The notes under the pieces were generated by a model. It made no database searches. It was not told where the DNA came from and worked only from the letters and a program-made list of their open reading frames with translations. From Nitrospiria bacterium (GTDB lineage: Bacteria; Nitrospirota; RBG-16-64-22), in contig CAKKSE010000008.1 in NCBI GenBank assembly GCA_919903025.1, forward strand, positions 16,334 to 80,333: a stretch of 64,000 nt of DNA, given 5' to 3'. Position numbers and translations under genes: made by a program. The first letter of the stretch is position 1; every line of letters begins with the position of its first letter. Positions 2,453 through 38,905 of this stretch are shown piece by piece.

Positions 2453-5152
2453 TCAAGCCCTCCCCAGCCACCCCTTCCGCACGGCGAGTTTCGCCGCTTC
2501 GAGAACCGGAAAGATCGTGAGCGCCGCCGCGACGGGCACAACGAGATCCGCCGGAGACAGACTCGCCGTCTGGAACACGTCGCGGAGCCCGGGCGCGTAG
2601 ACCACGGCCGCGAGAAGGGCGATCTCCCAAGCGATCGCGATGTTCAGCCACCGGTTCGACCAGAACCCCGAGCCAAAGATGGAATGGCGGTCCGAGCGAA
2701 AGTTGTACGCCTTGCCGAATTCGATCAGGATGAGCGTCACGAAGACCGTTCCCATCGCCCGCTGAACGCTTGCGCCCGTGGAGAGAAGCCACGCGAAGAG
2801 ACCCATGTTCACGCCCGCCGACCAGAGACCGCCGACGGCCATGAGGGCCACGACCGGCCGTGTGAAGATGCCTTGGCGCGGGTCGCGCGGGGGGCGTTCC
2901 ATGAGGTCCTTTTCCGGCGGATCGAAGGCGAGGGCCAGCGCCGGAAGACCGTCCGTGGCGAGGTTGACGTAGAGGATCTGGACGGCCGAGAGGGGCAGAG
3001 GGTAGCCGAGAAGCGTGGCGGACGCCATCAGAACGATCTCGCCCACGTTCGCGGACAGGAGGTACATCAGGTACTTCTTGATGTTCCCGAAGATCCCCCG
3101 CCCTTCCTCCACGGCCGCGACGATGGACGCGAAGTTATCGTCGGTGAGCGTCATGGCCGCCGCCTCGCGCGAGACGTCCGTCCCCGTGATCCCCATCGCG
3201 ATCCCGATGTCGGCCTTCTTGAGGGCCGGGGCGTCATTGACGCCGTCGCCCGTCATGGCGACGACGTGGCCCCTTCCCTGGAACGCCTCCACGACCATCA
3301 GCTTGTGGGCGGGAGAGACCCGGGCATAGACGCGGATCTCCTCGACGACCCTCGCGTGCTCTTCCGCGCCCATCGCATCGAGGTCCGCCCCGGTCATCAC
3401 CCGCCCGTCCTTGAGGAGTCCGATCTCCCGGGCAACCGCCTCGGCGGTGAAGCGGTGATCGCCCGTGATCATGACCGGGAGGATCCCCGCCGCTTCGCAT
3501 TTCCGGATCGCCTCCGGGACCTCCTCGCGCGGCGCGTCATAGATGCCGACGAGACCCAGGAGCGTCATTCCCCGCTCGCCTTCTTCGGCCGAGTAGGCCT
3601 CGGGCAGGGCCCGGTCCGCAAGGGCGAGCACGCGAAGGCCCCGGCCGGCCAGTCTTCGCGCCTCGTCGAGGATCCTCTCGCGCGCGGGGGGATCGAGGAG
3701 GGTTTCTCCTGACGGTGTCGCGCGCCGCTCGCAGGCGGCGAGGATCACCTCCGGCGCTCCTTTGGAGCAGGCGAAGAGACCGTCCGGCCCGCGGTGGAAC
3801 GTGGTCATCCGCTTCCGCTCGGAGGAAAACGGAGCCTCGCCGATTCGTGGAGCTTCGTTCTCCAGGGAGGCTTTCTCCATTCCCGCCTTCGCCGCCGCGA
3901 CCACGAGGGCCCCTTCCGTCGGATCTCCCGCGATTTGCCACCCCGCCTCCCCCCTCCGCAAGCGGGAGTCATTACAGAGGGCGCCCGCCCTCAGCAGACG
4001 AACCAGATCGGACCAGAGCGAATCCGTCGTCCCGACGGGAATCCCGCCCCGCTGAAGGCCGCCTTCCGGCTCGTATCCCGAGCCCGTCACGTCGATCTCC
4101 TCTCCGGCCAAAACGATTCGCCGGACGGTCATCTCGTCCTTCGTGAGCGTTCCAGTCTTGTCCGTGCAGATCACGGACGTGGAGCCGAGCGTCTCGACGG
4201 CCGGGAGGCGCCGGACGAGCGCGTTTCGCCTGACCATCCTCCGGACGCCCAGGGCGAGCGACACGGTCACAACGGCCGGCAGGGCCTCCGGAACGACGGC
4301 CACGGCCAGGGCGATCCCCCAGACGAACATCTGGAAAAGCGGCTCGCCCCTCAGGAGTCCCGCGCCGACGATCAGGGCCACGACAACGAGCCCGGCCTGG
4401 ACGAGCCGTTTGCCGACGCGGTCCAGCTCCTTCTGGAGCGGCGTCCTCCCCCGCTCGACGGTCTGAAGCATTCCGGCGATCTTCCCGAACTCCGTCGTCA
4501 TGCCCGTCTGAACGACGACCCCGCGCCCCCGCCCGTACGTCAAGGCCGTTCCCGCGTAGAGCATGTTCCGCCTGTCTCCCAGGGAGGCTCCGGCCTCGGA
4601 GACGAGCGAAGCGTCCTTCTCCACGGGCATCGATTCGCCCGTCAGGACCGCCTCCATCGCCTGAAGGTTGACCGCCTCGATCAGCCGCGCGTCGGCCCCC
4701 ACCTTGTCGCCCGTATGCAGGACGAGGAGGTCGCCCGGAACCAAGTCCCGTGCGGGAACCTGCCTCTCCTCGCCGTCCCGAAGGACGGTCGCCGCAGGCG
4801 CGGCGAGAGCCCGGAGCGCCTCGACGGCCCGTTCGGCCCGGTACTCCTGAATAAACCCCATGACGACGGCGAGGAGAACGATCGCCCCGATGACGACAGC
4901 CTCGGCGGCGTGACCCATCAAGGCCGAGAGCGCAACGGCGACAAGGAGGACGGCGAGAAGGACGTTCTTGAACTGGTTGAAGAAGATGGAGAGAGGCGAG
5001 ACGCCAGCGGTTTCTTTGAGCTCGTTCGGGCCGTACTCAGCCAGCCGCCTCAGGGCCTCCTGCTCGGAGAGACCGCCGGCGGAGGAACCGACCTCCCGCA
5101 AGACGTCCTCGGCGGCGAGGGAATGCCATGGAATGGTCTGTAGGCGATTCAT
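2453..5152 (-). CDS. P-type cation-transporting ATPase (P2-type, Ca2+/Mg2+-like)
   Basis: 899 aa with DKTGTLT phosphorylation motif, TGES, GDGVNDAPAL hinge and 10 predicted TM segments. Confidence 0.9.
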   Translation of the reverse strand: MNRLQTIPWHSLAAEDVLREVGSSAGGLSEQEALRRLAEYGPNELKETAGVSPLSIFFNQFKNVLLAVLLVAVALSALMGHAAEAVVIGAIVLLAVVMGFIQEYRAERAVEALRALAAPAATVLRDGEERQVPARDLVPGDLLVLHTGDKVGADARLIEAVNLQAMEAVLTGESMPVEKDASLVSEAGASLGDRRNMLYAGTALTYGRGRGVVVQTGMTTEFGKIAGMLQTVERGRTPLQKELDRVGKRLVQAGLVVVALIVGAGLLRGEPLFQMFVWGIALAVAVVPEALPAVVTVSLALGVRRMVRRNALVRRLPAVETLGSTSVICTDKTGTLTKDEMTVRRIVLAGEEIDVTGSGYEPEGGLQRGGIPVGTTDSLWSDLVRLLRAGALCNDSRLRRGEAGWQIAGDPTEGALVVAAAKAGMEKASLENEAPRIGEAPFSSERKRMTTFHRGPDGLFACSKGAPEVILAACERRATPSGETLLDPPARERILDEARRLAGRGLRVLALADRALPEAYSAEEGERGMTLLGLVGIYDAPREEVPEAIRKCEAAGILPVMITGDHRFTAEAVAREIGLLKDGRVMTGADLDAMGAEEHARVVEEIRVYARVSPAHKLMVVEAFQGRGHVVAMTGDGVNDAPALKKADIGIAMGITGTDVSREAAAMTLTDDNFASIVAAVEEGRGIFGNIKKYLMYLLSANVGEIVLMASATLLGYPLPLSAVQILYVNLATDGLPALALAFDPPEKDLMERPPRDPRQGIFTRPVVALMAVGGLWSAGVNMGLFAWLLSTGASVQRAMGTVFVTLILIEFGKAYNFRSDRHSIFGSGFWSNRWLNIAIAWEIALLAAVVYAPGLRDVFQTASLSPADLVVPVAAALTIFPVLEAAKLAVRKGWLGRA

Positions 5153-5169
5153 GGGCGGTGTCGAAGGAA

Positions 5170-5610
5170 CTAAAGCAGGCCCCTTTTCATGGCGCTCAAG
5201 AACGCCTCCGGCCCGAGAACCAGGATCCCCTCATATTCGCGGACATCCAGGAGATGGGCATCGCGGCTCACTATGTAGCGCGCGCCCGTCTTCAGCGCGA
5301 GATGGAAGAACTTGTCGTCGTCCGGGTCAGCCGGCACGATCCTCTCGCGGCCGCGGCTGTCGCCGAGATGGGAGCTCTCCTTGAGGAGCCCGATGAAGGC
5401 CTCGATTCTGTTGGCCGACCAGCCGAGAAGCGTACGTATTCTGGGATAGGAGAGAACGCGGCGGACTTCGGCCAGGATCTCGTTCGACAGCACCAGTTCG
5501 TATCTTGCCTCCCCTTCGAGTCCCGACGCCTTCAGGATCTCGAAGGACGGCCCCGTCGGGCCAAGAAGCGCCGAGACGATCTGGTTCGTATCCAGAACGA
5601 CCCGAATCAT
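5170..5610 (-). CDS. PIN-domain toxin (PIN_3 family)
   Basis: MIRVVLDTNQIVSALL...RDAHLL pattern. Overlaps the upstream antitoxin by 4 nt. Confidence 0.75.
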   Translation of the reverse strand: MIRVVLDTNQIVSALLGPTGPSFEILKASGLEGEARYELVLSNEILAEVRRVLSYPRIRTLLGWSANRIEAFIGLLKESSHLGDSRGRERIVPADPDDDKFFHLALKTGARYIVSRDAHLLDVREYEGILVLGPEAFLSAMKRGLL

Positions 5611-5888
5611 CCTGGCCGAGCGCGACGCCTCGCCCAGCGAACCGCCTGGTCAATCAGGCGCTCGATCTCCTCCGCCTTCTTCCCCTTGTTCCTTTCGTGG
5701 ACGTCCTCGATGATGGCCAACAGCGCCTTCTTCGACGCCTCGTGTCTCTCGAGAATCTCGATGGGAACGATCGCGGCGGCCGGCTTCCCCTTCTTGCTGA
5801 TGACGTAGTGGTCTCCCCGAAGACGAGCGCCATCCACCAGGTCTCCCAGCCTCTTCCGCGCATTCTCGACCGTCACGCTTCGGCTCAT
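5607..5888 (-). CDS. Phd/YefM-family antitoxin
   Basis: SVTVENARKRLGDLVDGARLRGDHYVISKKGKPAAAIVPIEILE is a typical Phd/YefM N-terminus. Start set at the internal Met (cat at 5886-5888). Confidence 0.7.
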   Translation of the reverse strand: MSRSVTVENARKRLGDLVDGARLRGDHYVISKKGKPAAAIVPIEILERHEASKKALLAIIEDVHERNKGKKAEEIERLIDQAVRWARRRARPG

Positions 5889-5979
5889 GGCTTCCTCCTG
5901 ATCCTTACAGAACTTACTAACAATGATAATTCCTGAGGGCAAGAAAGTAAAGCTCTCCCGTGGAGCGAGGAGGCCCTGA

Positions 5980-6993
5980 TCACCGCCCGCCTCTCTCCAG
6001 GATGTAGACCCCATAGGCGTTGAGAAAGTAGATCGCGAAGATCGCAGCGGCGACCCAGCTCAGGCGCAAGCCCCGCTTCGTCTCCGGCTGATAGAAGAGG
6101 GCCAGGATGGCGATCCCGCTCATAATGATCGCGGAGAGGGCCGGAAGGAAATGCGTGCGGGAGACATGCGCGAGAATGGGGCCAGGGGTGTAGAGGAGAT
6201 CATTCACGGCCAAGATGGCTAGGTTGAAGAGGTTGCTCCCCAGGAGTCCCCCAATGGCAAGGTCGATGGCGCCCATCCTCAGCGCCGCGAGCGAAGTCAC
6301 AACTTCCGGCAGCGTGGTGGCCATAGCAATGAGGAGCGTTCCTACGAACGTCTGCCCCCACCCCGTGGCCTCGGCTAGGTCCTCACCGACAAACGGCAGC
6401 CAAGCGGCCGCGGCGATGATCGCGGTCGCGTTCAGGGCAAACCCCCGGTAGGCTCTCGCCGAAGAGAACTCTTCGTACTCGCGGACCGCCTTCAGTTCTT
6501 CCCGAATCTTCCTCCGTTCGAACCGGAAGATCACCCGCATCCCGATGACGTAGAAAACGAGGAGGAGCGGTGTATACAGCCCGACCCAGGAGAGCCGAAG
6601 AGGAACTCCCATTCCGCTCATGAGGAGACCGACGGCCGCGATGCCCAGCATGACGACGCCGAACCCCGCCGCAAGAATATGCCCCTGCTCCGCCCGGGAG
6701 AGGACGGCGCCCGGGCGGTAGAGCAGGTCCAGTACGGCAATGACCGTCAGGTTGATCATGCAGGCGCCCAGCACATCCCCGACGGCGATGTCGGGCAAAT
6801 CCGCCGCCGTCACGGCACTTGCCCCCGTGATCAACTCCGGGAGAGATGTGACGGAGGCCATCAGGACGACGCCGATCCACGTCCGGCCCATTCCCGTCTT
6901 CTCGGCGATGATGTCCCCGTACCGCGTCAGGCGCACTCCCGCCGCGAGGATCAACAGCATGCACGCCGCGAATTGAAGCCAGATGGACAGCAT
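5980..6993 (-). CDS. CaCA-family cation/Ca2+ antiporter (YrbG-like)
   Basis: Two alpha-repeat regions (GxSxPE..., GNLLGSNLFN) and about 10 TM segments. Confidence 0.75.
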   Translation of the reverse strand: MLSIWLQFAACMLLILAAGVRLTRYGDIIAEKTGMGRTWIGVVLMASVTSLPELITGASAVTAADLPDIAVGDVLGACMINLTVIAVLDLLYRPGAVLSRAEQGHILAAGFGVVMLGIAAVGLLMSGMGVPLRLSWVGLYTPLLLVFYVIGMRVIFRFERRKIREELKAVREYEEFSSARAYRGFALNATAIIAAAAWLPFVGEDLAEATGWGQTFVGTLLIAMATTLPEVVTSLAALRMGAIDLAIGGLLGSNLFNLAILAVNDLLYTPGPILAHVSRTHFLPALSAIIMSGIAILALFYQPETKRGLRLSWVAAAIFAIYFLNAYGVYILERGGR

Positions 6994-7012
6994 GGTCTCC
7001 GGCTGAACGGGC

Positions 7013-8296
7013 TCAGGCGTACCTGAGCCACCAGTAGAGACTGGCGATCGCGATCGAGAACAGCATCAGCGGAAACGCCAACAGCATGAACGGGAGGAAC
7101 CGGATCGGCTGGCCCGCCCGCTCGGCGAACCCGGCGACGATCAGGTTGGCCGAGGCGCCGATGATCGAGCCGTTGCCGCCGAGGCAGGCCCCGAGCGCGA
7201 GCGCCCACCAGAGGGGGCGGATGGCCTCATCGCCTCCGAACGAGGGCCCCATGCCCTTGATAATCGGGATCATCGTCGCCACGAAGGGAATGTTATCCAC
7301 CAAGGCGGAGAAGACGGCCGAGCCCCACATGATGACCATCCCCGCCAGGAAGAGGTTTCCCCTCGTGAGGTCGGCCAGTTGGCCGGCCAGGATGTTGAGA
7401 AGCCCCGCCTTCTCCAGGCCGTGGACGAGCATGAACAAACCGACGAAGAAGAAGATCGTCACCCACTCGACCTCGCCGAACGTGTGGTGAAAATCCTTGC
7501 CGGACCACCAGAGGAGAACCACGGCGCCCGTCAAGGCGATGATGGCCGGCTCCAGGTGGAGGGAATGCGCCATCGTGAAGCCCGCGATCACTCCCGCGAG
7601 CACGGCCATCGACTTCCACAGGAGGACCCGGTCGCTGATGGCGTCCCCCTCCCGGAACTCCATGATCCGCTCCCGATCCTCCTCTGCAACCTTCATCTTG
7701 CGCCCCCAGATAAGGTAGAGGGGAAGAAGCGTGGCAAGAAAGATGACGACCGTCACGGGCGCAAGATGGATCACAAAGTCCATGAACGACAGCCCGGCGG
7801 CCGAGCCGATCAGGATGTTAGGCGGATCGCCGACGAGCGTCGCCGTCCCACCGATATTGCAGGCAAAGATCTGCGCGAACAGGAACGGGTAGGCCGAAAC
7901 CTTCAGGGCATCGGCGATCAGCATCGTCACGGGCGCCACGAGAAGGACCGTCGTCACGTTGTCCAGCAGGGCCGAGAGTACGGCCGTGACGACGGCCAAT
8001 ACGACCAGGATCGGCCACGGCCGCCCGCCCACCTTCTTGGCCGACCAGATGGCGAGGAACTGGAACACCCCCGACTTCTGGGTGATCGCCACGATCACCA
8101 TCATCCCCACGAGGAGGAAGATCGTGTTCAGGTCGATCCCTTTGAACGCGTCGGCCTGCGACTGGATGCCCGCGAAGATCATGATCGCGGCGCCCAGGAG
8201 CGCGATCACGGCGCGGTTGACCTTCTCCGTCATGATAGCGATGTACGTGGCGATGAAGATGCCCGTGGCAACGACGAGCGCGGCGGTTCCCGTCAC
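7013..8296 (-). CDS. ArsB/NhaD-superfamily anion permease (CitMHS/YbiR-like)
   Basis: 427 aa polytopic protein with IGGTATLVGDPPNILIG and duplicated halves. Confidence 0.65.
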   Translation of the reverse strand: MTGTAALVVATGIFIATYIAIMTEKVNRAVIALLGAAIMIFAGIQSQADAFKGIDLNTIFLLVGMMVIVAITQKSGVFQFLAIWSAKKVGGRPWPILVVLAVVTAVLSALLDNVTTVLLVAPVTMLIADALKVSAYPFLFAQIFACNIGGTATLVGDPPNILIGSAAGLSFMDFVIHLAPVTVVIFLATLLPLYLIWGRKMKVAEEDRERIMEFREGDAISDRVLLWKSMAVLAGVIAGFTMAHSLHLEPAIIALTGAVVLLWWSGKDFHHTFGEVEWVTIFFFVGLFMLVHGLEKAGLLNILAGQLADLTRGNLFLAGMVIMWGSAVFSALVDNIPFVATMIPIIKGMGPSFGGDEAIRPLWWALALGACLGGNGSIIGASANLIVAGFAERAGQPIRFLPFMLLAFPLMLFSIAIASLYWWLRYA

Positions 8297-28706: not shown

Positions 28707-29759
28707 CTATTTCCGCCATCTCTGCGTCTTCCGCCACGCCGCGCTCTGTCCGCGTCCAAGGCACTCGATGCGGCCGTCCGATTTCAGGTTTTTCAAAACG
28801 CGCCGGATCAAGTCGATGCTCACGCCCGGACATAGCCTCTGAATCTCCGCCACACGAAAGGCATCGGACATTTCGTCAATCGCACGGGCCACAAGCTCCG
28901 ACTTTTCTCCCTTGGGGCTCTTGACCTGCCCCATGCGTTCCTCGAATTCCAGGTAAGCGGTCTTGAGGATGTAAAGAAGGTAATTCACATACGGCCAAGG
29001 ATCATTCTTCCCTTCATGCCATTTCGTGGAACTCTGCTCAAGCGTCTCGTAATAGCGTTCTTTATTCTGCTCGATGAGGCGTTCCAGACTGATATACCGG
29101 CCGACTTCATATCCGAGGTGATGGCATTGGAGCAGGAGCAACAGCCGCGACACCCGGCCATTGCCGTCCCTGAACGGATGAATACAGAGAAAATCCAGAT
29201 TGAACGCGGCCATCGCGATCAACGGGTGAATCTTGCGCTCCTCAAGGCTCGCGTCCCAGAGCACGGCTAAAGTCTTCATGGCACCGGGGGTTTTCGCGGC
29301 CGGCAAGGTCTTGAAACGGATGCGGGATGTGCCGTCCGGACGCTTTTCGATGATATCCCCGTCTTTTTCCTTGTACTTGCCGGCATCCCAGATTTCCCCG
29401 CGAGCCAGCCGGTGCAAACGCAGGATCGTCTCTTCGGTAATCGGAAGCCTCGGCCCTTTCTCATGGATCAGGGCCAGCGCTTCCCGATAACCATGCACTT
29501 CCTCTTCGTTCCGGTCTCGGAGAAGTGGCCTGCCGAAAACGAGCGTCTCGATGCGCGCCCTCTCCACCTCCACCCCCTCGATCCGGTTCGACGAAACCGT
29601 GCTCTCGATCAACGCGTGCTCGCGCAACACCTTCAAGCGCTGGGGTGATTGCCGCGTGAACAACTCCTGTTTGCCGCGCGCCTCGCCGAGATCGGTGAGA
29701 TACCACGAGGTTGTTACCGGAATGCTCTCGTGCTTCGCCAAGAGCTGGCGCAATGTCAT
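28707..29759 (-). CDS. Fic family protein (class II; N-terminal inhibitory SxxxEG helix) with a C-terminal wHTH
   Basis: HPFRDGNGRVSR Fic motif. TVSSNRIEGVEV is the inhibitory motif. Start trimmed to the Met at 29757-29759. Confidence 0.8.
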   Translation of the reverse strand: MTLRQLLAKHESIPVTTSWYLTDLGEARGKQELFTRQSPQRLKVLREHALIESTVSSNRIEGVEVERARIETLVFGRPLLRDRNEEEVHGYREALALIHEKGPRLPITEETILRLHRLARGEIWDAGKYKEKDGDIIEKRPDGTSRIRFKTLPAAKTPGAMKTLAVLWDASLEERKIHPLIAMAAFNLDFLCIHPFRDGNGRVSRLLLLLQCHHLGYEVGRYISLERLIEQNKERYYETLEQSSTKWHEGKNDPWPYVNYLLYILKTAYLEFEERMGQVKSPKGEKSELVARAIDEMSDAFRVAEIQRLCPGVSIDLIRRVLKNLKSDGRIECLGRGQSAAWRKTQRWRK

Positions 29760-29971
29760 CACGGTTCTCGCTCTCCAATGGGCTGTTGTAGCGCGGATTC
29801 TATCATCTTTTCGCATCTGTACAACGGAACTCGGAAATCGTCGAGGAGAACCGCATGGGCGGCAACAATCCCGGCCCGTAAGTTCTTACAGACTTATGAC
29901 AGGGGTCACTACGAGGTGGAAGGAGTCTCGGCGGGTGTGATATAAAGGCCGCTCGTTCGGATTCAGCTTCT

Positions 29972-30070
29972 GGGAGCGGCTCGGTCACTGGTGGACCGCT
30001 AGGTCTTCAAAACCCATGTGGGGTGCTGAGAGGCGCTCCAGGTGGGTTCGATTCCCACACGCTCCCGCCA
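29972..30070 (+). tRNA. tRNA-like gene with selenocysteine-tRNA architecture (UCA anticodon, long extra arm), a candidate selC or a pseudo-tRNA
   Basis: Hand-folded from the sequence. The 7-bp acceptor GGGAGCG/CGCTCCC is followed by a G8·A mismatch abutting the T-stem, giving 8/5 geometry. The D-stem is CGGTC/GACCG. The anticodon arm has loop CTTCAAA, identical to the E. coli tRNA-Sec loop. The extra arm is an 8-bp stem (3 G·U pairs) with a GAGA tetraloop. The T-arm is GTGGG-TTCGATT-CCCAC, with G73 and an encoded CCA. Total length is 99 nt. Confidence 0.45.
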
Positions 30071-30399: not shown

Positions 30400-32619
30400 C
30401 TACTCAAACTCGATCTTTACATCGTTGGAGAGGTTCAGATCGGCCAGAATCTGCTGAAGTTCGGTCTGCAGGGACCGGGCCGAATCTGCGCTGGTGGTCA
30501 CCGAGAACTCTACACCGATACGCAGATCGGAGCCCGATCTGAGCTTCGGAATGATCTTGGTTCCCAGCCTGTTCCAGTGCTCCGGAGGGATCGTGCCGAC
30601 CACTCTGAGCGTCCGCGTTTCCTGAGCAGGTCCCTTTGTAATGCCGGGAAGCGACGTGAGTATTTCCGGTTCCGCCTCGGGTAGACGTTCCGGCCCTTTC
30701 ACGACGACCCCAACCTTCAACGCCTCGGCCCTCGCCTTCGTCAGGAGGAAGACCCCGCTGTCGAACACAATCTCCTCCGGCGCGACAACCTCCTTAAACC
30801 AGACCCTCTCGTATTCTCCATCCGTCCTCAATCCCGACGCCAGGCCCAAGCTTCCCTTGTCCACGAACTCAGAGATCTTGCTCCTCAAGACCTGTTCGGG
30901 ATCCACGAGACGGGTCAGCGCCCCGGTCAGAAAACTCTGGCGGAGGCTCGCCAGCGGCCAGGCACTGGTTTCCTTGAAAGCGGGCGGCCAGTTCCGCTCT
31001 ATGCAGCCGGCTCCCACGGATTCGTTTAGAAGCGAGTATGACTTGAGAGCGGAGATAATCCGGCCGGCCAGCGTCTCACTGGCGCTCGCGTGTCCCGCAC
31101 CGAGGTCAATGATTTTGAGCCCGCTTGCTTCACCAGGATCCGCAAGCGCCACGCACCGATAGCTGGCCCATACTTCGGCCTTTGCGGACTCCTCGGCGTC
31201 CCTGACGCGCGTGTGCAGTTCAAGCCGGTCGGACCGGTCGAAGTCGCCGCCCAGGATGCCTTCATCCACGTCTCTTTTCACGCGCCTCCAAGCGAGCCAT
31301 GTCTCGACCTTCTCGCGGAGGTCCCGGCCGGGCTTCTTGACGCACCAGACGAGCGCCGCTGGATACAGCCGGTCGGAAGACCCCCGCCTCTTCGTCCACT
31401 CAAGAACCCTCTTTGGCACGTCCCCTTTCGCTTCCCACTCGATCTCCGGAGACGTAACCACGAGTGTCAGCCTGGGGGAATCCTGGATTTCAGACGCATC
31501 CGCCGGAAAGGGGGCCCAGGAGATGCTTCGCCCCCGGTCGAATTCGACTTTGACAACCAACTCCATGGCAGGCCGGATTTCGTTCTCCTCGTCAAGAGAG
31601 GCCCGTCTGTCGCTCACGACCTTCTTCAAAGTCGGCAGGTAGCCGATCCGAAAGCCATCGGTTCCCGCCTTCCGTACGTAGTAGGCTTTCGACTCGAGCG
31701 CCAGGGCGGCAGTGTCGATGGATGTCGTGTCGGTCCCTGGCTCGCCCAGGGCGAACCTCAGCTCCGGGAGATGTGCGACCCGGTCCAGTTGTCCCCCGGA
31801 CGATTCGAAGAGAATGGCTGTCGCTACCCGCCTATGAATGCCGCGCAGCAACCCCTTGGCATCCGCATCGAGCACGCGGGTATGCGCGTTGGCGCCGGCA
31901 ATGTCGGTATCGATCGCGGCGACCAGGCGGGATTCTCCCAGTTGACCGAGCACGATGCTTCGGAACTCCGGTACTTCGAGCGGCGCCGAGCCGAGAGTAA
32001 TTAGCGGCTCTGTTCTTGCCTTCTGGAAGCCTTCCCGCCAGTCGCAATGCACATAGATGCTTCCATCATCCGCCAACAAATCACGCATCAACACCAATCT
32101 CTCGTAGATCATGGCTATAAAGGAATCTGCGCCCTTCCCCCACGTATCGCGGTAGGCGAGTTCTTCGAGAATGCTCGGCTTCTTGGTAAAGGTGTCGTCG
32201 CCAATTTCGATGTCCATCGAGAAGTCCGCGCCCACGTCGAACGGCGGATCGATGTAGATCAGCTTGATGCCGCCCTGCTTCTCGATTTCCTCATGCAACG
32301 GACCATTCTTGAGGCTGGCGAGAATCAGCTTGTTGTCGCCCCAGATCAGCTTGTTGGTCCAGCCCTTGAGCTGCCGCCCACTGGCGGGGTCGAACAGGTC
32401 GCCCTGAATCTTTACGTCCTTCTCCGCCCGCGGCTCGTCCACCTGCTCGATAGTCTGAAACGGCAGCACCACATTGCAGACCCCATTCGTTTTGCCGTTC
32501 CATACCAACTCCACCTCGCGCTTCTCCTCGAACAATAGAAAGCGGTACTTCTCCGGCAGCGGCTTGCCGGCCTCCAGCAGTTTCACAATGTCGCGGATTT
32601 CGTTGTCGGTTAGCTTCAT
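30400..32619 (-). CDS. Mod-like N6-adenine DNA methyltransferase-domain protein with a roughly 480-aa uncharacterised C-terminal region (canonical FxGxGTT motif I not evident)
   Basis: N-terminal 200 aa include NKLIWGDNKLILASL and GGIKLIYIDPPF (motif IV, DPPY-type), then SIYVHCDWR. This matches the beta-class Mod/N6_N4_Mtase order. The start overlaps the stop of the upstream ATPase (ATGA). Confidence 0.6.
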   Translation of the reverse strand: MKLTDNEIRDIVKLLEAGKPLPEKYRFLLFEEKREVELVWNGKTNGVCNVVLPFQTIEQVDEPRAEKDVKIQGDLFDPASGRQLKGWTNKLIWGDNKLILASLKNGPLHEEIEKQGGIKLIYIDPPFDVGADFSMDIEIGDDTFTKKPSILEELAYRDTWGKGADSFIAMIYERLVLMRDLLADDGSIYVHCDWREGFQKARTEPLITLGSAPLEVPEFRSIVLGQLGESRLVAAIDTDIAGANAHTRVLDADAKGLLRGIHRRVATAILFESSGGQLDRVAHLPELRFALGEPGTDTTSIDTAALALESKAYYVRKAGTDGFRIGYLPTLKKVVSDRRASLDEENEIRPAMELVVKVEFDRGRSISWAPFPADASEIQDSPRLTLVVTSPEIEWEAKGDVPKRVLEWTKRRGSSDRLYPAALVWCVKKPGRDLREKVETWLAWRRVKRDVDEGILGGDFDRSDRLELHTRVRDAEESAKAEVWASYRCVALADPGEASGLKIIDLGAGHASASETLAGRIISALKSYSLLNESVGAGCIERNWPPAFKETSAWPLASLRQSFLTGALTRLVDPEQVLRSKISEFVDKGSLGLASGLRTDGEYERVWFKEVVAPEEIVFDSGVFLLTKARAEALKVGVVVKGPERLPEAEPEILTSLPGITKGPAQETRTLRVVGTIPPEHWNRLGTKIIPKLRSGSDLRIGVEFSVTTSADSARSLQTELQQILADLNLSNDVKIEFE

Positions 32620-35297
32620 GATCCACCCACCAAATGCGCAGCTTGTGTGTTCTTCTTCAGATGCGCATGCTGCTCTTGTGCTTTTTCCGCCTTATCTTTC
32701 TGCTTGCTCAAAAAATCCTTGAACGACTCAAGATCGGCGGTCATCTCTTTGGTCGTTGGTAATGATGTATTCGCGGCAACGGCGTGGTCATGCAAGTCAA
32801 CAATTGACGATGCGCGCGTCATTCCGGCGAACACCGATTCGACCGACTCAAAATCTACGCGAACACCGGTTAAGCTCTGTGTCTTAATCTCGTTTTCCAA
32901 TCTCTGTAACACTTTATTAAACAGGATCTCCTCCACCGAGCGCTCCCACGTTGAACGCAGTAGTACGTAGTACTCACGATTCAGCTTCCTGTAATCGTCA
33001 GGGTTGCCAGCGGTTTCTGCTGCTTTTGCGTCCGCAAGCAGTTTATCCAGGTGATGTACGCGCAGCGCCACTTTGGAGCCAGACCATGGCAGAAAGCGGG
33101 TAACGATTCCGGTGGCGTTACCAAGCGCCTCAATGTTCTGCGGCGAAATCTCGGTGCCCTGATGGTCGGCGTCGGCTTCCTCCCACAAATCGCGAAGGAA
33201 GACGAGATCGTGCGTGAAGATGATGACTTGCCTTGTCCTTGCCTCTTTGACTAAAAGCCGGACAACACCACCGCGGATGCGGTGGTCGAGGGAGGTTACC
33301 GGATCATCCAGGATGATTCCGCAATTATCGTCATTCGCACTCAGTTCAGCCAGAAAGCAGGCGAGCGAGATGGCTGTCCGCTCGCCTTCACTAAATACCG
33401 CCTCGGGATTGCCCAGCGTGGCTCCTTCGATGGTTACCTTGTGGAGAACCTTGCCTTTGCCGCCCGGTTGCCGTTCGACGCCGAGCCGAGCTCTATCCAG
33501 GCCGATGTCTTTGAGATTATTAAGCATCTGGGTCTTGAACGCGTCGGTAACGAGTCGTTGCTGGAGTTCGCCCGCTTTCAGGGCAATCTTGTTCGTCGTG
33601 ATCTTGTCAGCCGCCGCTTTTTCAGCTTCGGCCAGCTTCAGGCTGCGCAAATGAGCGAGGACTGAAGCGAGATTTTGATTCAATTTAAGGCGGGCCTTGA
33701 GTTCGGCTATTTCCGCTTCGAGTAGCCGTATTTGCTCAGTTACTTTGGCATCATCGGCAAGCTCCTTGAGCCGTTCCCCAATGGCTTTGATCTCCGCGTC
33801 ACAGGCCTGCGCTGGTGACATTGGCTCAGGCGGCAGTTCTTCCCATTGGCGGGATTTGGCCGCTTCTTCGATGGCGGTAAGTCTGTTTGTTGCGGCTGGA
33901 AAGAAAACCTTGAGTTCTTCGAAGATTGTCGAACCGGCCGCCTTCAAAGAATCCTCAAGAACTTCGATTTCCTTCGGCATACCGTGCGGCAGTTCTGCCA
34001 ATGCCTTCCGCTCCGCTTCAGCATTTAGGGCTGCTGCATCGCGCTTGCTTGATACATCGTCCTGAATGAACTTCCAAAACCCTTCCAGCCGGAGCCGCGC
34101 TGCCTCATCAAGCGGTTGCAGGCAGAGCACGCATTTGGCGCCTTCTTGACTGGCTGGGAAGGGTTGGCCTGGGTATGCTACCTGCGTCGAATACTTCTCT
34201 GCGGCCATTAGTAGCTCGCGCCACACGTCACCGCCGACATCTTTCATTTCGAGGCCGCCGAACGTGGCCTTCGCGGCGACTTCAACGGCCTGCTCGCACT
34301 TCTGCAACTCGGCGATCTTGCCATTTATCTCGGTGACCCGGGCTGCTGAGATACCGTTCAGCATCGAGGATACGCTGGACTTGATTGTTTCCAGCCGTTT
34401 CTTCTGCGCGAGAAGCGAAGCTCGCAGAACCTGCGGTGAATTGGCCTTGAGTTGGGATAGTTCCTGTTCCTTGGCCTTGAGAGTCTCAGTATTTTGTTCT
34501 GTCCACTCGGCCCGTTTCTTTACATCGTCTTCCGATGTGCGCGCACCGATTGCCCCGATGAATTTGCCCGTAGCCGTGGTGTCCACAAGATGACTGAGCG
34601 CGTCCGGTTTCGGCGCATGCTGGGTAGCAAGGTCTTGAAGGCGTTTCTTGACCTCGGCAGTAATGTCGCCAAGCCCCCTGATGATGTCGAAACCATAGGG
34701 CAGGAAACTCAGCTCGTTGCTGCCCGTAATGTAGATGCGCGCGCACTTGGAATCGAACACCGCGAAGCGGCTGAGGCCGCTGGACGAGGGCGAGCCGTCA
34801 ATCCATTTTTCGTCGCGGACTTTGCCGGTCTCTTCGATCTCAAAAATTGCGGATGCGGGCCCCGTTTTCGCTGAAGCGTAGACATTGGGCAAGATGTCAT
34901 CGACCACACGCGCATGAAACGCCTTTTTCATCACACGGGCGTAACCAGACTTGCCGGACGCATTGTGGCCGTAGATCACGGTAAGCTGTTTGCCGATGGG
35001 CAGGCGCTGACCGTCTTTTAGCGCATTCACGTTTTCCAGGTCGCGCACCCCGACAAGGGCCAGTTTCTGACCAGGCACTGGTGGCGGAGGCAGGTCAGCG
35101 TTTTTCAACATCAGGTCGCCGAGAGGTGCAGCCGCCTTCTTTAGCCCGTGCTCGACAAGCGCGATATCGAATATTTCGTCTCTGTCTTTCTGCGGCAGTG
35201 AGCCACTTTTGGCGAACATCCGACGAATCGCCTCGTTTTGCCAAGGGGCCAAGTCCTTCGACAAGCTCAACAGTTCGGAAAATATATTGTTCGCCAT
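32616..35297 (-). CDS. AAA_13-family ABC-type ATPase, RloC-like (putative anticodon nuclease with a Rad50-like coiled coil and CxxC zinc hook)
   Basis: Walker A GHNASGKS. A roughly 400-aa coiled-coil insert containing KCVLCLQPL (CxxC). Then the signature, Walker B and D-loop (ILDDPVTSLD) and an H-loop (FTHD). The C-terminal roughly 200 aa are a non-ATPase domain, as in PrrC/RloC anticodon nucleases. Confidence 0.55.
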   Translation of the reverse strand: MANNIFSELLSLSKDLAPWQNEAIRRMFAKSGSLPQKDRDEIFDIALVEHGLKKAAAPLGDLMLKNADLPPPPVPGQKLALVGVRDLENVNALKDGQRLPIGKQLTVIYGHNASGKSGYARVMKKAFHARVVDDILPNVYASAKTGPASAIFEIEETGKVRDEKWIDGSPSSSGLSRFAVFDSKCARIYITGSNELSFLPYGFDIIRGLGDITAEVKKRLQDLATQHAPKPDALSHLVDTTATGKFIGAIGARTSEDDVKKRAEWTEQNTETLKAKEQELSQLKANSPQVLRASLLAQKKRLETIKSSVSSMLNGISAARVTEINGKIAELQKCEQAVEVAAKATFGGLEMKDVGGDVWRELLMAAEKYSTQVAYPGQPFPASQEGAKCVLCLQPLDEAARLRLEGFWKFIQDDVSSKRDAAALNAEAERKALAELPHGMPKEIEVLEDSLKAAGSTIFEELKVFFPAATNRLTAIEEAAKSRQWEELPPEPMSPAQACDAEIKAIGERLKELADDAKVTEQIRLLEAEIAELKARLKLNQNLASVLAHLRSLKLAEAEKAAADKITTNKIALKAGELQQRLVTDAFKTQMLNNLKDIGLDRARLGVERQPGGKGKVLHKVTIEGATLGNPEAVFSEGERTAISLACFLAELSANDDNCGIILDDPVTSLDHRIRGGVVRLLVKEARTRQVIIFTHDLVFLRDLWEEADADHQGTEISPQNIEALGNATGIVTRFLPWSGSKVALRVHHLDKLLADAKAAETAGNPDDYRKLNREYYVLLRSTWERSVEEILFNKVLQRLENEIKTQSLTGVRVDFESVESVFAGMTRASSIVDLHDHAVAANTSLPTTKEMTADLESFKDFLSKQKDKAEKAQEQHAHLKKNTQAAHLVGGS

Positions 35298-35377
35298 AGG
35301 AAACGCTGCTGGTTAGTAGTGCGTAAGCCTACAATCGCGGAATCTTCCGATGTTTTCGATACTGATAAATTTCTCAA

Positions 35378-36676
35378 TCATGGCTCACCGCTCTTGTCCG
35401 GCACCGCGTCTATGGGAGTAGATGCCTCAAGTGCCTTCATTTCCAGACCTTCGATCTCCTGCAACGACTTGCCCGCGATGCCTTGCAGGTCCCCATACAT
35501 TCCGACGGTTGACTGCATGACGCGGTCGATCTGCTCCTCGCGCTTGGCCCACTGCTTGGTGATCGCCTTCCTCTCCTTGTCGAGGTCTTCCTGCATGTTG
35601 GAAAACGCTTCGACGATGGCTTCCACCCTCTGGCGGAAGCGCGGGCCGGTGAGGTACTGGTAGATCATTTCCGTTTTTGTTTGCTGGCCTTCGGATGCCT
35701 GCCGCGCTATGGTGATTTCCAGCAACGACTGGCGAAGGATTACCGCCACCGGCAATGCAACGCGGGGGTGTGTTACCCAGACGCCCTCAACCATCTCGAA
35801 GGTTTCAACCCCTTTCGGCAAACTCTGGCTTACAATCACGGCGATTTCAGCTTTTGCGGTGCGTTGGTCTTCCCGCAATTTGGTCAGCCATGCGTCGCTC
35901 CAGTTTTTGGTGCGCTTGGACTCCCACAGGATGGTGCCGCTGGCCTGGCCGCCCGAGCCGACAACACGGTGCACCACATCCCCGCCGTATTCGCCCTTGG
36001 GCACGGGCTCGATAACATCGAAAGGGAATTTAGTGCGCAACAGACTTTCTAGTTCCAGTTCCTGCACTTCGCCCTGCAATTGCTGCGAGCCTTGTTCAGC
36101 CTTGCGTTTCAGGTCTTCAATCTGTTTCTGCATCGCGGCGATGATCTGTTCTTTCTCCATCACCTTAAGCTTCTGTTCGTCTTCGACCTCCTTGCGCGCC
36201 TGGACACGGGTAGCGGCAAGCCCTTCCTGAATCCGCTTCTCGATGGTCAGTTCTATTTCACGTCGGGCATCATCAAGCTCGCGCTGTTTGCGGATCAGGT
36301 CAGCCTGTGCCTTCTGCGCCTCGGCGAGTTTCACGTCCCGTTGTTTCAGCACTTCTTGCAGATCGGCAAGCTCCTTGCTCTTCTGATCCAGATCGTTCGC
36401 CAGCGCTAATTTGGCTTTCTTGGCTTCCTCCGCGGCGATCTTGGCGCGTTCCTGCCGAACCTTCTCGGCGACCTGATCGTCGATGGTGTCTTTCGCCTTG
36501 GTGAGTGCTTCTTCACGCTCACGGAGCGACGATTCGCGGCTGGCAATGTCAGCGTCTTTCTTTGCCAGGCGCTGCTCATAGTCACGGCGAGTGGATTCAA
36601 TGAGTGGCGCCGCCAGTGATTCCGTGAGTTTGATCTCGGTTTTGCACTGCGGGCAGACAATAGTTGGTTCTGTCAT
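35378..36676 (-). CDS. DUF2130-family protein (N-terminal CPxC zinc ribbon, long coiled coil, conserved C-terminal domain)
   Basis: MTEPTIVCPQCKTEI..., then KE-rich coiled coil, then a C-terminal globular domain of about 200 aa. Own AT-rich promoter region at 36680-36750. Confidence 0.55.
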   Translation of the reverse strand: MTEPTIVCPQCKTEIKLTESLAAPLIESTRRDYEQRLAKKDADIASRESSLREREEALTKAKDTIDDQVAEKVRQERAKIAAEEAKKAKLALANDLDQKSKELADLQEVLKQRDVKLAEAQKAQADLIRKQRELDDARREIELTIEKRIQEGLAATRVQARKEVEDEQKLKVMEKEQIIAAMQKQIEDLKRKAEQGSQQLQGEVQELELESLLRTKFPFDVIEPVPKGEYGGDVVHRVVGSGGQASGTILWESKRTKNWSDAWLTKLREDQRTAKAEIAVIVSQSLPKGVETFEMVEGVWVTHPRVALPVAVILRQSLLEITIARQASEGQQTKTEMIYQYLTGPRFRQRVEAIVEAFSNMQEDLDKERKAITKQWAKREEQIDRVMQSTVGMYGDLQGIAGKSLQEIEGLEMKALEASTPIDAVPDKSGEP

Positions 36677-36755
36677 CGACCTCTCCTTAACTCACTGAAA
36701 TTCGCTTTCCGAAATCAATTCCGGGAATCTTATAAAATTCTTCCTGACTCGGCGG

Positions 36756-37100
36756 TTACCTGTATTCGATACAAATTGCTATCCCCGCCACGATCTCCTC
36801 CATCAGCGGTTCGGGGAGCTGCCCCAGCTTCTTGACCAAACGGGTTTGGTCAACGGAACGGACCTGGAACGTATCCGCCCCCGACTTCTTGGTGAGGCCG
36901 TTCTGTTTGTCAGGTTCAAGGTAAATCATCCACGGGTAGCCGGCATATGGCGGTTTCCAGTCCGTGATGGGGACGATGATCTTCAAAGGCAGTTTGCCAA
37001 TGCTGTTGGAACTCACCACGACGGCGGGCCGGGTCTTCTTGATTTCCTGTCCAATGGTCGGATCGAGATTGACCAGCCACACCTCTCCACGGTCAATCAT
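36756..37100 (-). CDS. MazF/PemK/Kid-family toxin (mRNA interferase)
   Basis: GEVWLVNLDPTIGQEIKKTRPAVVVSSNSIGKLP is the PemK signature. Overlaps the upstream gene by a few codons. Confidence 0.75.
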   Translation of the reverse strand: MIDRGEVWLVNLDPTIGQEIKKTRPAVVVSSNSIGKLPLKIIVPITDWKPPYAGYPWMIYLEPDKQNGLTKKSGADTFQVRSVDQTRLVKKLGQLPEPLMEEIVAGIAICIEYR

Positions 37101-38295
37101 TGACCGCCCCGTCAAGTTCGGTGAAGGCGGTCAGCTCTTTGTCTGTTTCGTACTCGTGCACCGCGCGTTCCGCCGCCGCTTCGAGCAGTGTGCGGCGTTC
37201 GTCCAGCGACAGCGCGGCGATCTTCTTGGCCTTGGTCATTTCTCCCTCCTTACCGTTCAGCGATACTACGCCGGGATTCAATTCCTCGGCTCGCTCACGG
37301 GAGATAATGCCTTCCGCCATCGCTCGCAGCACGAGCTGTTTGAAGCGTAGCGGCTGTTCCGGTGCGACTTGCTTGCCGGGCTCGTGCTTGTGCCATCTAC
37401 GTTTGCGAAAAATGACCACGGTGTTCTTGTACCAGCTTGGCGTGATAATCCCGAGGTCCTTTGCGCGCCGCAACCAGGCCTGCATGCTCAAGCCGTATTT
37501 GTGTTTTAGCAGCAGCAGTTCATCGAACTCGATACGGCTTCGAGACCTACCAAGCTCCATGTATGCCGCTTCATCCGGCACCAAGAAGGCCGCGGCAAAG
37601 CGATGAGCGATATCCTCGTCTTCTTTCGGTTGTTTCTGCTTTATTACCAAATGCCCAAGTTCGTGGGTGAGATTGAACCGCTGACGATCTCCGGACATGG
37701 CGGCATTGGTGACAAGTACCGGAACCTTTCCCCCGTCGTCACCGAGAACCGTCGCCCAGGCTGAATGGCCGTCGAATCGCTCATCGGCATCCAGCGCCAA
37801 TACCGCGGCGGCGTGGTCTTCGAGTGTTTCGGCTAGATTCTCGATGGGGTCCAGACCGATTTTCCAAACCTCTCTAAGCTCTTTGGCGATTTTCTCTGCA
37901 TCGTCCACAGACTTCGCTTGTCGGGGTTTCGGAATGCCGGCCGCCGCGCGCCATTCGAGTTTCCTGTCGGCGGGGAACAGGGCGGCCAACCAACAATAGT
38001 GTTCGAGGTGATCGGAGATCTGTACTTGCAGCCGACTGGCCTCGGCCTTGGGCAAGCGGCTGTGTTTGCGGTAGGCGATGAACTCCACCTTGACCTTCGG
38101 TTCCTGCATGAAGTAGCTCGTCTTGACGCGCAGCGCATCAGCCAGACGCACGAGCACTTCCGGGCCTGGAACGCTCTTGCCGGTTTCGTACTTGGAAATG
38201 GCCTGCTTCGTGAGGAAGTGGTCCATCTTGGCTACCAGCGCGTCCATGGACAAACCTGCACCGAGCCTGGCCTGTTTCAACCGTTCGCCTATCAT
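37093..38295 (-). CDS. Xre-family HTH fused to an ImmA/IrrE (COG2856, M78) zinc peptidase domain, with a short C-terminal tail; predicted antitoxin/regulator partner of the MazF-like toxin
   Basis: N-terminal HTH_3 (LSMDALVAKMDHFLTKQAISKYETGK). Central HELGH (HExxH) with the downstream E typical of ImmA/IrrE. The last roughly 50 aa are charged/helical and overlap the toxin start. Confidence 0.7.
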   Translation of the reverse strand: MIGERLKQARLGAGLSMDALVAKMDHFLTKQAISKYETGKSVPGPEVLVRLADALRVKTSYFMQEPKVKVEFIAYRKHSRLPKAEASRLQVQISDHLEHYCWLAALFPADRKLEWRAAAGIPKPRQAKSVDDAEKIAKELREVWKIGLDPIENLAETLEDHAAAVLALDADERFDGHSAWATVLGDDGGKVPVLVTNAAMSGDRQRFNLTHELGHLVIKQKQPKEDEDIAHRFAAAFLVPDEAAYMELGRSRSRIEFDELLLLKHKYGLSMQAWLRRAKDLGIITPSWYKNTVVIFRKRRWHKHEPGKQVAPEQPLRFKQLVLRAMAEGIISRERAEELNPGVVSLNGKEGEMTKAKKIAALSLDERRTLLEAAAERAVHEYETDKELTAFTELDGAVND

Positions 38296-38627: not shown

Positions 38628-38773
38628 GCCTGCGCGCCGCGCGCAAGCAGGCCGGTGATGATCCCGGGGTCTTCTTGCTTGCAGGCGCATGGTGGCGAGC
38701 GAAGCGAGCCACGATGCGCTTTACCCTGAAAGGGAGTCTGCCGGAGCGCCCGCCTGCGCGCCGCGCGCAGGCT
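38628..38773. repeat. Two copies of a GC-rich palindromic element GCCTGCGCGCCGCGCGCAGGC (REP-like, or bidirectional terminator hairpins)
   Basis: Copy 1 at 38628-38652 (with an AAGC insertion). Copy 2 at 38753-38773 is a perfect 21-bp palindrome. Confidence 0.45.
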
Positions 38774-38905
38774 GGGGGGGTTGCGGGGTTGTCGGTGGGC
38801 AGTGTCCGCGTCCGGCTCACGGCTCGCACCGCTAAAGAAAGTTCGAGCCTCGGTTAAGATGGTCCCGCCAGAGTCGTTGGGAGGAAGCGGTCAGGGTCCG
38901 CCCCG

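Follow-up and report, generated by a model that had tools for sequence, protein, structure and literature searches.

RloC proteins were defined as distant homologs of PrrC, 658-897 amino acids (aa) long, that share the ATP-binding cassette (ABC) motifs of PrrC, carry a coiled-coil insert broken by a CX2C loop, and conserve a C-proximal Arg-X3-Glu-X36-52-His motif (Davidov & Kaufmann 2008, PMC2610378). In the protein of Geobacillus kaustophilus (GkaRloC), the cysteines are C288/C291 and the triad is R692/E696/H737, mutation of which abolished the nuclease activity (PMC2610378). The Geobacillus rloC gene flanks an hsdR relic, and some rloC genes are linked to type I or III restriction-modification (R-M) systems (PMC2610378), a linkage that was found in 8 of 72 RloC loci and described as rare (PMC2610378, PMC3458546). 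RloC carries an internal switch, usually travels without R-M, and is reported to need no external silencer (PMC3458546). Here we analyze an rloC-like gene and the 739-aa open reading frame (ORF) that follows it in a stretch of 64,000 nucleotides (nt) from a Nitrospirota metagenome-assembled genome (contig CAKKSE010000008.1), hereafter called the window, whose positions we use throughout. We consider it probable that the locus consists of an RloC-family ATPase standing beside the chimeric relic of a lost type III R-M operon, and that the rloC-like gene works alone.

The rloC-like gene and its product

The rloC-like gene (32616..35297, minus strand) encodes a protein of 893 aa and shares the letters ATGA with the downstream ORF (30400..32619, minus strand), the ATPase gene ending in ...GGA TCA TGA and the 739-aa ORF beginning with ATG AAG CTA. 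An initial annotation of this DNA had described two minus-strand ORFs that overlap in this way, and we found both ORFs and the overlap, while the coordinates that it gave for them, 32616-35297, cover the ATPase gene and leave out the 739-aa ORF. Pfam AAA_13 matches residues 387-710 of the ATPase (E 3e-21), in agreement with the AAA_13 architecture assigned earlier, and the PADLOC model PDLC04891, which represents the candidate defence system PDC-S06, matches it from end to end (E 8.1e-184; residues 6-867 against model positions 4-854 of 858). We collected 283 homologs with an E-value cutoff of 1e-5, the full-length ones being about 870-900 aa long with 95-100% query coverage, and a genome scan returned at least 548 relatives spread over many phyla.

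The features by which RloC was described are found in this protein. In a 31-sequence alignment (A1) that reaches down to 28% identity, the Walker A motif IYGHNASGKSG (residues 108-118; 34944..34976, minus strand) has G110, N112, G115, K116, S117 and G118 invariant, and the zinc-hook-like sequence KCVLCLQPL (residues 388-396; 34110..34136, minus strand) has C389 and C392 invariant and Q394 nearly so. The ABC signature VFSEGERT (residues 634-641), the Walker B motif with its D-loop, CGIILDDPVTSLDH (659-672), and the H-loop IIFTHDL (692-698) lie together at 33204..33398 on the minus strand, with S636, E637, G638 and E639 invariant in the signature, D664, D665, P666, S669 and D671 in the Walker B/D-loop, and T695 and H696 in the H-loop. 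These motifs thus return at residues 634-698 only after the insert, as had been noticed before. In the full-length AlphaFold model (predicted local distance difference test, pLDDT, 81), an N-terminal helical domain (residues 1-50) is followed by the ABC head, the insert (203-598) and a C-terminal helical bundle; the insert splits the head into an N-lobe before it and a C-lobe after it, and it is mostly helical, the CxxC occupying a loop that separates helices 356-374 and 398-411. A coiled coil of roughly 400 aa containing KCVLCLQPL had been proposed for this region; the length and the CxxC hold, but the model shows a string of helices of 20-30 residues each rather than one continuous coiled coil. 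The protein therefore has a largely helical, head-splitting insert with a central CX2C, a putative zinc hook, and at 893 aa its size falls within the range of 658-897 aa.

The remaining feature lies in the C-terminal domain (residues 743-893; 32619..33071, minus strand), a non-ATPase domain that had been put at about 200 aa and that we place at about 150-190 aa. Here Y777, R781, E785, R799, H836 and D837 are invariant in the 31-sequence alignment as well as in two further alignments of 43 and 25 sequences. The RloC-like reading called for a search of this domain for an Arg/Glu/His triad, which is present as R781-X3-E785-X50-H836 (R781 at 32955-32957, E785 at 32943-32945 and H836-D837 at 32787-32792, minus strand), a putative anticodon-nuclease triad invariant in 31-43 homologs down to 21-28% identity and within the Arg-X3-Glu-X36-52-His spacing. 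Searching a profile of the C-terminal domain against 1.84 billion representatives returned 3049 cluster representatives (50% identity clusters). Among the best 150 matches, the full-length proteins are about 860-900 aa long and carry the domain at their C-terminal end; all the matches listed have this same architecture, and none of them forms a bridge to PrrC-sized proteins. The profile matches confirm a large coherent family. Based on this architecture, we assign the 893-aa protein with good confidence to the RloC family as an intact member, and we infer from the analogy that it would be an RloC-type tRNase.

Modelled alone (pLDDT 88), the C-terminal domain is a four-helix bundle whose top Foldseek match is the HEPN protein 2hsb, with a non-significant E-value of 0.028. 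Proteins of the HEPN superfamily reportedly fold as a four-helix up-down bundle and carry a conserved Rx4-6H-type motif. Looking for HEPN by sequence gave only noise-level matches, both in Pfam scans of the C-terminal domain from one sequence and from 25 family members and in a profile search against PDB. When the ATPase was compared by sequence with solved structures, generic ABC transporters were the closest matches.

We also considered that the ATPase might be an ordinary DNA-repair enzyme of the SbcC, RecN or Rad50 type, since the best PDB matches to its full-length model are the heads of SMC, Rad50, JetC, LmuB and RecN proteins. Rad50 works together with Mre11, and SbcC with SbcD. No phosphoesterase of the Mre11/SbcD type (Metallophos) was found among the Pfam-scanned neighbours in the window, and the genomic context of the family is variable and island-like, with R-M genes, integrases, prokaryotic Argonautes and toxin-antitoxin genes. 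Moreover, a defence-candidate model matches the ATPase over its full length, and repair ATPases lack the extra conserved C-terminal domain with its invariant R/E/H-D motif. The initial annotation had named an SbcC/RecN-type ATPase without a nuclease-like C-terminal domain as the outcome that would overturn its reading; what we found instead is a conserved domain with an invariant triad, and we regard a plain repair function as very improbable.

The public version of this protein (P0121, Nitrospirota bacterium, 867 aa) is 100% identical to the ATPase and begins 26 residues past the ATG at 35297. Among the residues that it omits (35220..35297, minus strand) are W19, which is invariant, and Q20, R25 and R26, which are nearly so; the start given in the database is therefore probably wrong.

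The 739-aa downstream ORF and the ancestral operon

The 739-aa ORF is a chimera of two remnants. Its first 195 codons (32035..32619, minus strand) correspond to the N-terminus of a type III Mod methyltransferase and are 85-99% identical to the N-termini of the full-length Mod proteins encoded beside close relatives of the ATPase. PADLOC MTase_III matches residues 36-195 at model positions 20-179 of 616 (E 7e-45), and Pfam N6_N4_Mtase matches at model positions 1-60 of 221 with 26.0 bits, just under the cutoff of 26.7. The remnant keeps motif IV, DPPF, at residues 124-127, and it lacks both the target-recognition domain and the S-adenosylmethionine (AdoMet) motif I FxGxG, which lies at residue 390 in the intact Mod of locus L001. 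It had been taken for the N-terminal half of a methyltransferase, but it represents only about 195 of about 757 Mod residues, or about a quarter.

The other 543 aa (30400..32031, minus strand) are the counterpart of residues 373-920 in an HmaC-like DUF499 ATPase. Compared with residues 373-919 of the DUF499 protein P0003, residues 197-739 show 66% identity, and PADLOC HmaC (DUF499 ATPase) matches residues 200-609 at model positions 376-791 of 941 (E 8e-17), so that what had appeared as 480 aa of unknown sequence belongs to a recognizable family. The P-loop region of DUF499 is missing, for the Walker A-like GGGKT near residue 86 of P0003 falls within the absent first 372 residues. By comparing the ORF codon by codon with the mod genes of L088 and L001 and with the DUF499 gene of L086, we mapped the in-frame junction to codons 195-197 (CGG GAA GGC, R-E-G; 32029..32037, minus strand), where the mod homology runs to ...CAT TGC GAC TGG CGG (R195), the DUF499 homology begins with GGC TTC CAG (G197), and the join lies at 32032-32034. 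The composition also shifts near the junction, since the GC content of the DUF499-derived part is 0.615, compared with 0.558 in the mod part and 0.549-0.558 upstream.

Among the best 120 homologs of the whole 739-aa ORF, none covers more than 75% of it. When residues 90-310, which span the junction, were used as the query, thousands of Mod or DUF499 proteins matched, each covering about half; of the best 120 matches, only P0241 spans both sides (84% coverage), the others lying on the mod side (48-71%). P0241 is encoded on the ENA contig L094 (ERZ1286166), which is collinear with window positions 21745-42627 at 97% identity and encodes the same junction, ...YVHCDWREGFQKARTEPL.... A chimeric join made during assembly could have been suspected, as the source is a metagenome-assembled genome and the GC content changes near the junction; however, L094 comes from a separate assembly of a near-identical genome, so the junction is real in that population, and we give a mis-assembly hardly any credence. 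In L094, nearly every gene is fragmented, with 231 gap openings in the alignment, and this looks like uncorrected long-read indel error, not like real pseudogenes.

The relatives of the ATPase reveal what the mod remnant was once part of. Seven distinct contigs combine an ATPase of at least 73% identity with available downstream sequence (L001/L087, L088, L090, L091/L092, L004, L005 and the window, which is counted here), and in all of them a mod gene or a mod remnant lies directly downstream of the ATPase gene. In L001/L087, the ATPase is followed by a full 757-aa Mod, KilA-N, Bro-N and an 898-aa ResIII protein, L001 being the only contig long enough to show res. L090 has a 767-aa Mod and then a KilA-N-like gene, L088 has a Mod of more than 519 aa, in L091/L092 and L004 the Mod runs to the contig end, and L005 retains a mod remnant of 62 codons only. 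The spacing between the two genes varies, from overlaps of 4 nt in L004 and 1 nt in L090 to gaps of 24-31 nt in L001, L088 and L091, and thus the ATGA coupling is not conserved among the relatives. As mod is directly downstream in these relatives, the rloC of this clade heads a type III R-M operon. The operon decayed on at least two occasions, once in L005 and once in the window, where rloC has outlived it. The gene-neighbourhood search that had been proposed bears out the co-occurrence of mod with the ATPase in close relatives, though not across the family. A truncated type III R-M locus present in every relative had been named as grounds for rejecting the earlier interpretation, and this largely applies: the locus is indeed truncated here, except that the relatives mostly keep it intact.

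Probing the window by tblastn with the Res of L001 gave no match, and neither did the probes for DUF1156 and the helicase. In L086, DUF499 is the last gene of an operon of the form helicase-(143 aa)-DUF1156-DUF499. The Mod-DUF499 junction appears from these comparisons to be restricted to the population of the window and L094, and by its sequence the 739-aa ORF reads as a deletion scar and not as a new fusion protein. The pairing and fusion had been thought undescribed, but the ORF joins fragments of two unrelated genes, and closer relatives carry an ordinary full-length Mod. In the history that we propose as the simplest, the ancestral operon would have had the order rloC-mod-[KilA-N/Bro-N]-res, with rloC first, and a deletion or illegitimate recombination would have joined codon 195/196 of mod in frame to about codon 373 of an HmaC-like DUF499 gene, with the loss of the last three-quarters of mod, of res, and of everything in the second system but the tail of DUF499. 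The resulting ORF would have kept the mod start codon and the ATGA overlap while losing both the complete methyltransferase and the ATPase core. It may still be translated, because the mod start was inherited, and it is most likely an inert, non-functional relic.

The chimera might instead be a functional coupled partner, in which the Mod N-terminus docks on RloC and silences it as EcoprrI does PrrC, the DUF499 region serving as a new sensor. Consistent with this, the ORF is intact over 739 codons, the ATGA overlap is kept, the same junction is present in a second assembly, and two lineages, the window and L005, have lost most of mod and yet kept its 5' end beside rloC. On the other hand, L005 keeps only 62 mod codons, so that the two lineages show no retained domain in common; a 5' stub of mod is bound to remain after every deletion sparing rloC, and one in three random fusions is in frame. 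The only junction-spanning match among the best 120, P0241, comes from this very locus as found in a second assembly, each of the best 120 homologs of the whole ORF leaves at least a quarter of it uncovered, and both catalytic cores are missing. In addition, RloC was reported to need no external silencer (PMC3458546). We therefore judge a working chimera to be quite improbable.

We favor an rloC-like gene that acts alone after the loss of its R-M operon, and several observations weigh against this view. The RloC assignment was made by the published description of features, and not by alignment to GkaRloC or the Acinetobacter baylyi protein (AbaRloC), and the match of the ATPase to the PADLOC PrrC model is confined to the Walker B region (E 5e-4). 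The 739-aa ORF has stayed open over 739 codons with its translational coupling kept, which would be expected of a recent deletion as well as of a retained function. We found no undeleted ancestor in which rloC-mod-res stands beside a full DUF499 system, and the order and number of the deletion events are therefore inferred; a metagenome scan for close relatives returned three loci, none with an undeleted rloC-mod-res...DUF499 arrangement.

If the protein behaves like the RloC of Geobacillus and Acinetobacter, its ATPase and zinc hook would act together as a built-in switch responding to DNA ends or breaks, and the nuclease would be held off by the zinc hook and the DNA-dependent ATPase until such ends or breaks are sensed. 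The C-terminal anticodon nuclease, once released, would excise the wobble nucleotide of its target tRNAs and halt translation when the cell is infected or its DNA is damaged. Given an internal switch, the enzyme should be neither unleashed nor disabled by the loss of Mod and Res, and rloC would go on working alone.

Two further observations concern mod itself. In L001 (1140-1331) and L091 (1786-1989), and also in L087, the ATPase gene is preceded by a duplicate of about 65 codons from the 5' end of mod and followed by the full mod, and the copies in L001 share 79% nucleotide identity over 153 nt; it looks as if the ATPase gene had been inserted, as a cassette, within the 5' part of mod. In the window, no copy of this kind lies upstream. 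Secondly, the Mod segment of residues 90-195 is unusually conserved and widely spread, being 92-97% identical in hundreds of metagenomic proteins (P0242-P0360 among them), many of only 150-390 aa, from taxa as different as Desulfitobacteriaceae, Aminicenantes and ANME-2 archaea.

Neighbouring genes and the wider family

The rloC-like gene and the 739-aa ORF belong to a minus-strand block of five co-directional genes (about 30400-38295), which encode, in the order of transcription, an HTH_3 + Peptidase_M78 protein, MazF/PemK, a DUF2130 protein, the ATPase and the 739-aa ORF. The GC content is 0.55-0.58 in the first four genes and the mod-derived part, compared with 0.64-0.65 in the flanks, and thus the block is merely lower in GC, not the AT-rich island that had been described.

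The gene directly upstream of rloC encodes a 432-aa protein with a DUF2130 domain of the PD-(D/E)XK superfamily (35378..36676, minus strand; Pfam DUF2130, E 1.6e-80), which lies 80 nt from rloC and is co-directional with it. DUF2130 has been assigned to this superfamily with its function uncharacterised (PMC3424549). The same arrangement, with DUF2130 directly upstream of and co-directional with an RloC-like ATPase, was found in L084 (8657-9961, gap 6 nt), L020 (8673-9968, 26 nt), L036 (8222-9859, 99 nt) and L089 (about 4651-5211), and L051 has remnants (1034-1873). RmuC, another PD-(D/E)XK family, neighbours the ATPase in four further loci. The DUF2130 protein of the window is 76% identical to that of L084, while the adjacent ATPases are only 30% identical, and the L084 pair stands alone between flagellar genes and a sensor kinase. 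In L036, a gene for a DUF499 protein of 1107 aa (4924-8247) immediately precedes the DUF2130-ATPase pair, the second instance in which DUF499 and RloC-like genes are neighbours. The repeated arrangement hints at a two-gene module with few independent events, as four of these ATPases form one clade (49-63% identical).

As a tentative possibility, DUF2130, with its PD-(D/E)XK fold, zinc ribbon and coiled coil, could be a dedicated partner of some RloC-like ATPases. The two genes would make up an autonomous module in which DNA cutting or end-sensing is linked to a Rad50-like switch and a tRNase effector, in a partnership much like that of Mre11 with Rad50. A different proposal drops the tRNase: the functional unit would be DUF2130 and the ATPase, paired like Rad50 with Mre11 or SbcC with SbcD, and this system would act on DNA or be triggered by DNA cutting, with the C-terminal bundle serving for regulation or interaction. 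The recurring adjacency of DUF2130 in these loci, the closer likeness of the DUF2130 proteins than of the ATPases beside them in the window and L084, the solitary L084 pair, the RmuC neighbours and the non-significant HEPN assignment all fit such a unit. However, DUF2130 occurs in only about six of about 90 loci, and most members of the family have no nuclease neighbour; the invariant R-X3-E...H-D resembles a catalytic site and matches the RloC triad, and a DNA-acting partner can coexist with a tRNase effector. We consider a DNA-directed unit of this kind rather unlikely, and we retain the RloC-type tRNase as the preferred reading of the ATPase.

Upstream of DUF2130 in the block are a MazF/PemK toxin gene (36756..37115, minus strand; Pfam) and a gene of 400 codons for the HTH_3 + Peptidase_M78 protein (37093..38295, minus strand), which is matched by the PADLOC RmrA models (E about 1e-44) and, with a score below the cutoff, by the NCBIfam spr1629 repressor/antitoxin model. 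The toxin gene overlaps the 3' end of the latter by 23 nt, and this pairing of toxin and partner is unusual. A scan for promoters and terminators gave counts at chance level, which neither support nor refute a single transcript; one sigma70-like site was seen upstream of the HTH-M78 gene. Just past the right edge of the low-GC block are two copies of a 24-nt GC-rich sequence, GCCTGCGCGCCGCGCGCAAGCAGG (38628-38651 and 38752-38775), 92% identical and 124 nt apart.

At the other end, a selenocysteine tRNA gene, tRNA-Sec (29972..30070, plus strand; ARAGORN, and Rfam RF01852 with 70 bits), lies at a distance of 330 nt from the 3' end of the chimeric ORF, and across it from the block is a gene of the Fic/DOC family (28707..29816, minus strand; PADLOC SoFic-like, E 1e-30) with a GC content of 0.57. 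According to published surveys, RloC-like genes occur in neighbourhoods with R-M and DOC toxins. No repeat of the tRNA-Sec 3' end, no other long direct repeat and no integrase that might mark the borders of the island was found within the window.

In relatives at most 58% identical to the window ATPase, the neighbours differ from mod. L002 and L003 have nothing R-M-like nearby, and a DpnII-MboI-like gene lies on the other strand. In L093 (370-6648), a 58%-identical ATPase is immediately followed by a 778-aa prokaryotic Argonaute (Piwi) and a DpnII-MboI-like nuclease of 419 aa. Across 80 genome loci, where the ATPases are about 30% identical, there is no universal partner gene: no neighbour family occurs in more than seven of them, and Mod is thus not a family-wide partner. 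The R-M neighbours counted are HsdM (7), HsdR (6), N6_N4 methylases (5) and genes of ResIII type (5 and 3), alongside tyrosine integrases (6), serine recombinases (3), RmuC (4) and DUF2130 (3). R-M linkage is found in about 12-15% of the loci, close to the 8 of 72 published for RloC, of which family it is a known feature.

Comparison with known systems

Since the fusion is most likely a deletion scar, a false lead towards an undescribed defence system, in which a methylase-domain fusion would be coupled to a suicidal nuclease, is removed. What the locus offers in its place is a clean natural example of an RloC-type gene that has survived the loss of its R-M operon, and this survival fits the published idea that RloC has its own on/off switch and spreads without an external silencer. 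The DUF2130 gene that recurs beside such Rad50-like defence ATPases offers a modest lead, open to testing, on the way in which they come into contact with DNA. Through PDLC04891, the best-matching model, the analysis also connects PDC-S06 to the sequence features that define RloC, a connection that would help annotation if confirmed with authentic RloC sequences. PDC-S06 is a single-gene AAA_13 ATPase system and itself only a computational candidate, even though its model matches our ATPase over the full length; in the literature we found only defence-system inventory listings of it, with no functional data and none equating it with RloC.

The remnants in the 739-aa ORF can each be set against an intact system. 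Residues 1-195 are a bona fide Mod N-terminus, and relatives carry the full Mod and Res, but the window lacks the target-recognition domain, the AdoMet motif and res of type III R-M and holds no functional R-M system. Similarly, residues 197-739 correspond to the C-terminal 60% of DUF499/HmaC of the Hma (DUF1156-DUF499-helicase) system, but the window has neither the P-loop part of DUF499 nor the DUF1156 methylase nor the helicase.

The ATPase differs from Rad50 and SbcC in its extra conserved C-terminal domain and in having no paired Mre11/SbcD phosphoesterase among its Pfam-scanned neighbours. With PrrC-EcoprrI, an anticodon nuclease embedded in a type Ic R-M locus, the locus shares a triad-bearing ABC-ATPase encoded inside an R-M operon, as seen in its closest relatives; however, PrrC is 341-416 aa long, has no coiled coil or zinc hook, and is always R-M-linked, while the R-M system here is of type III and, in the genome of the window, destroyed. 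The closest described counterpart is RloC of Geobacillus kaustophilus and Acinetobacter baylyi (Davidov & Kaufmann 2008; Klaiman et al. 2012, 2013), in which a helical insert with a central CX2C likewise splits the head (here at C389/C392) and the C-terminal Arg-X3-Glu-Xn-His (R692/E696/H737 in GkaRloC, R781/E785/H836 here) is found in proteins of 658-897 aa. In both cases most genes of the family stand alone, linkage to R-M of type I or III being confined to a minority, and the window gene, like Geobacillus rloC, adjoins an R-M relic. The window ATPase departs from GkaRloC in about 90-100 extra N-terminal residues, which include the conserved helical domain 1-50, in a Glu-to-His spacing of 50 rather than 40, and in having Leu or Ala, not Ser, before the His.

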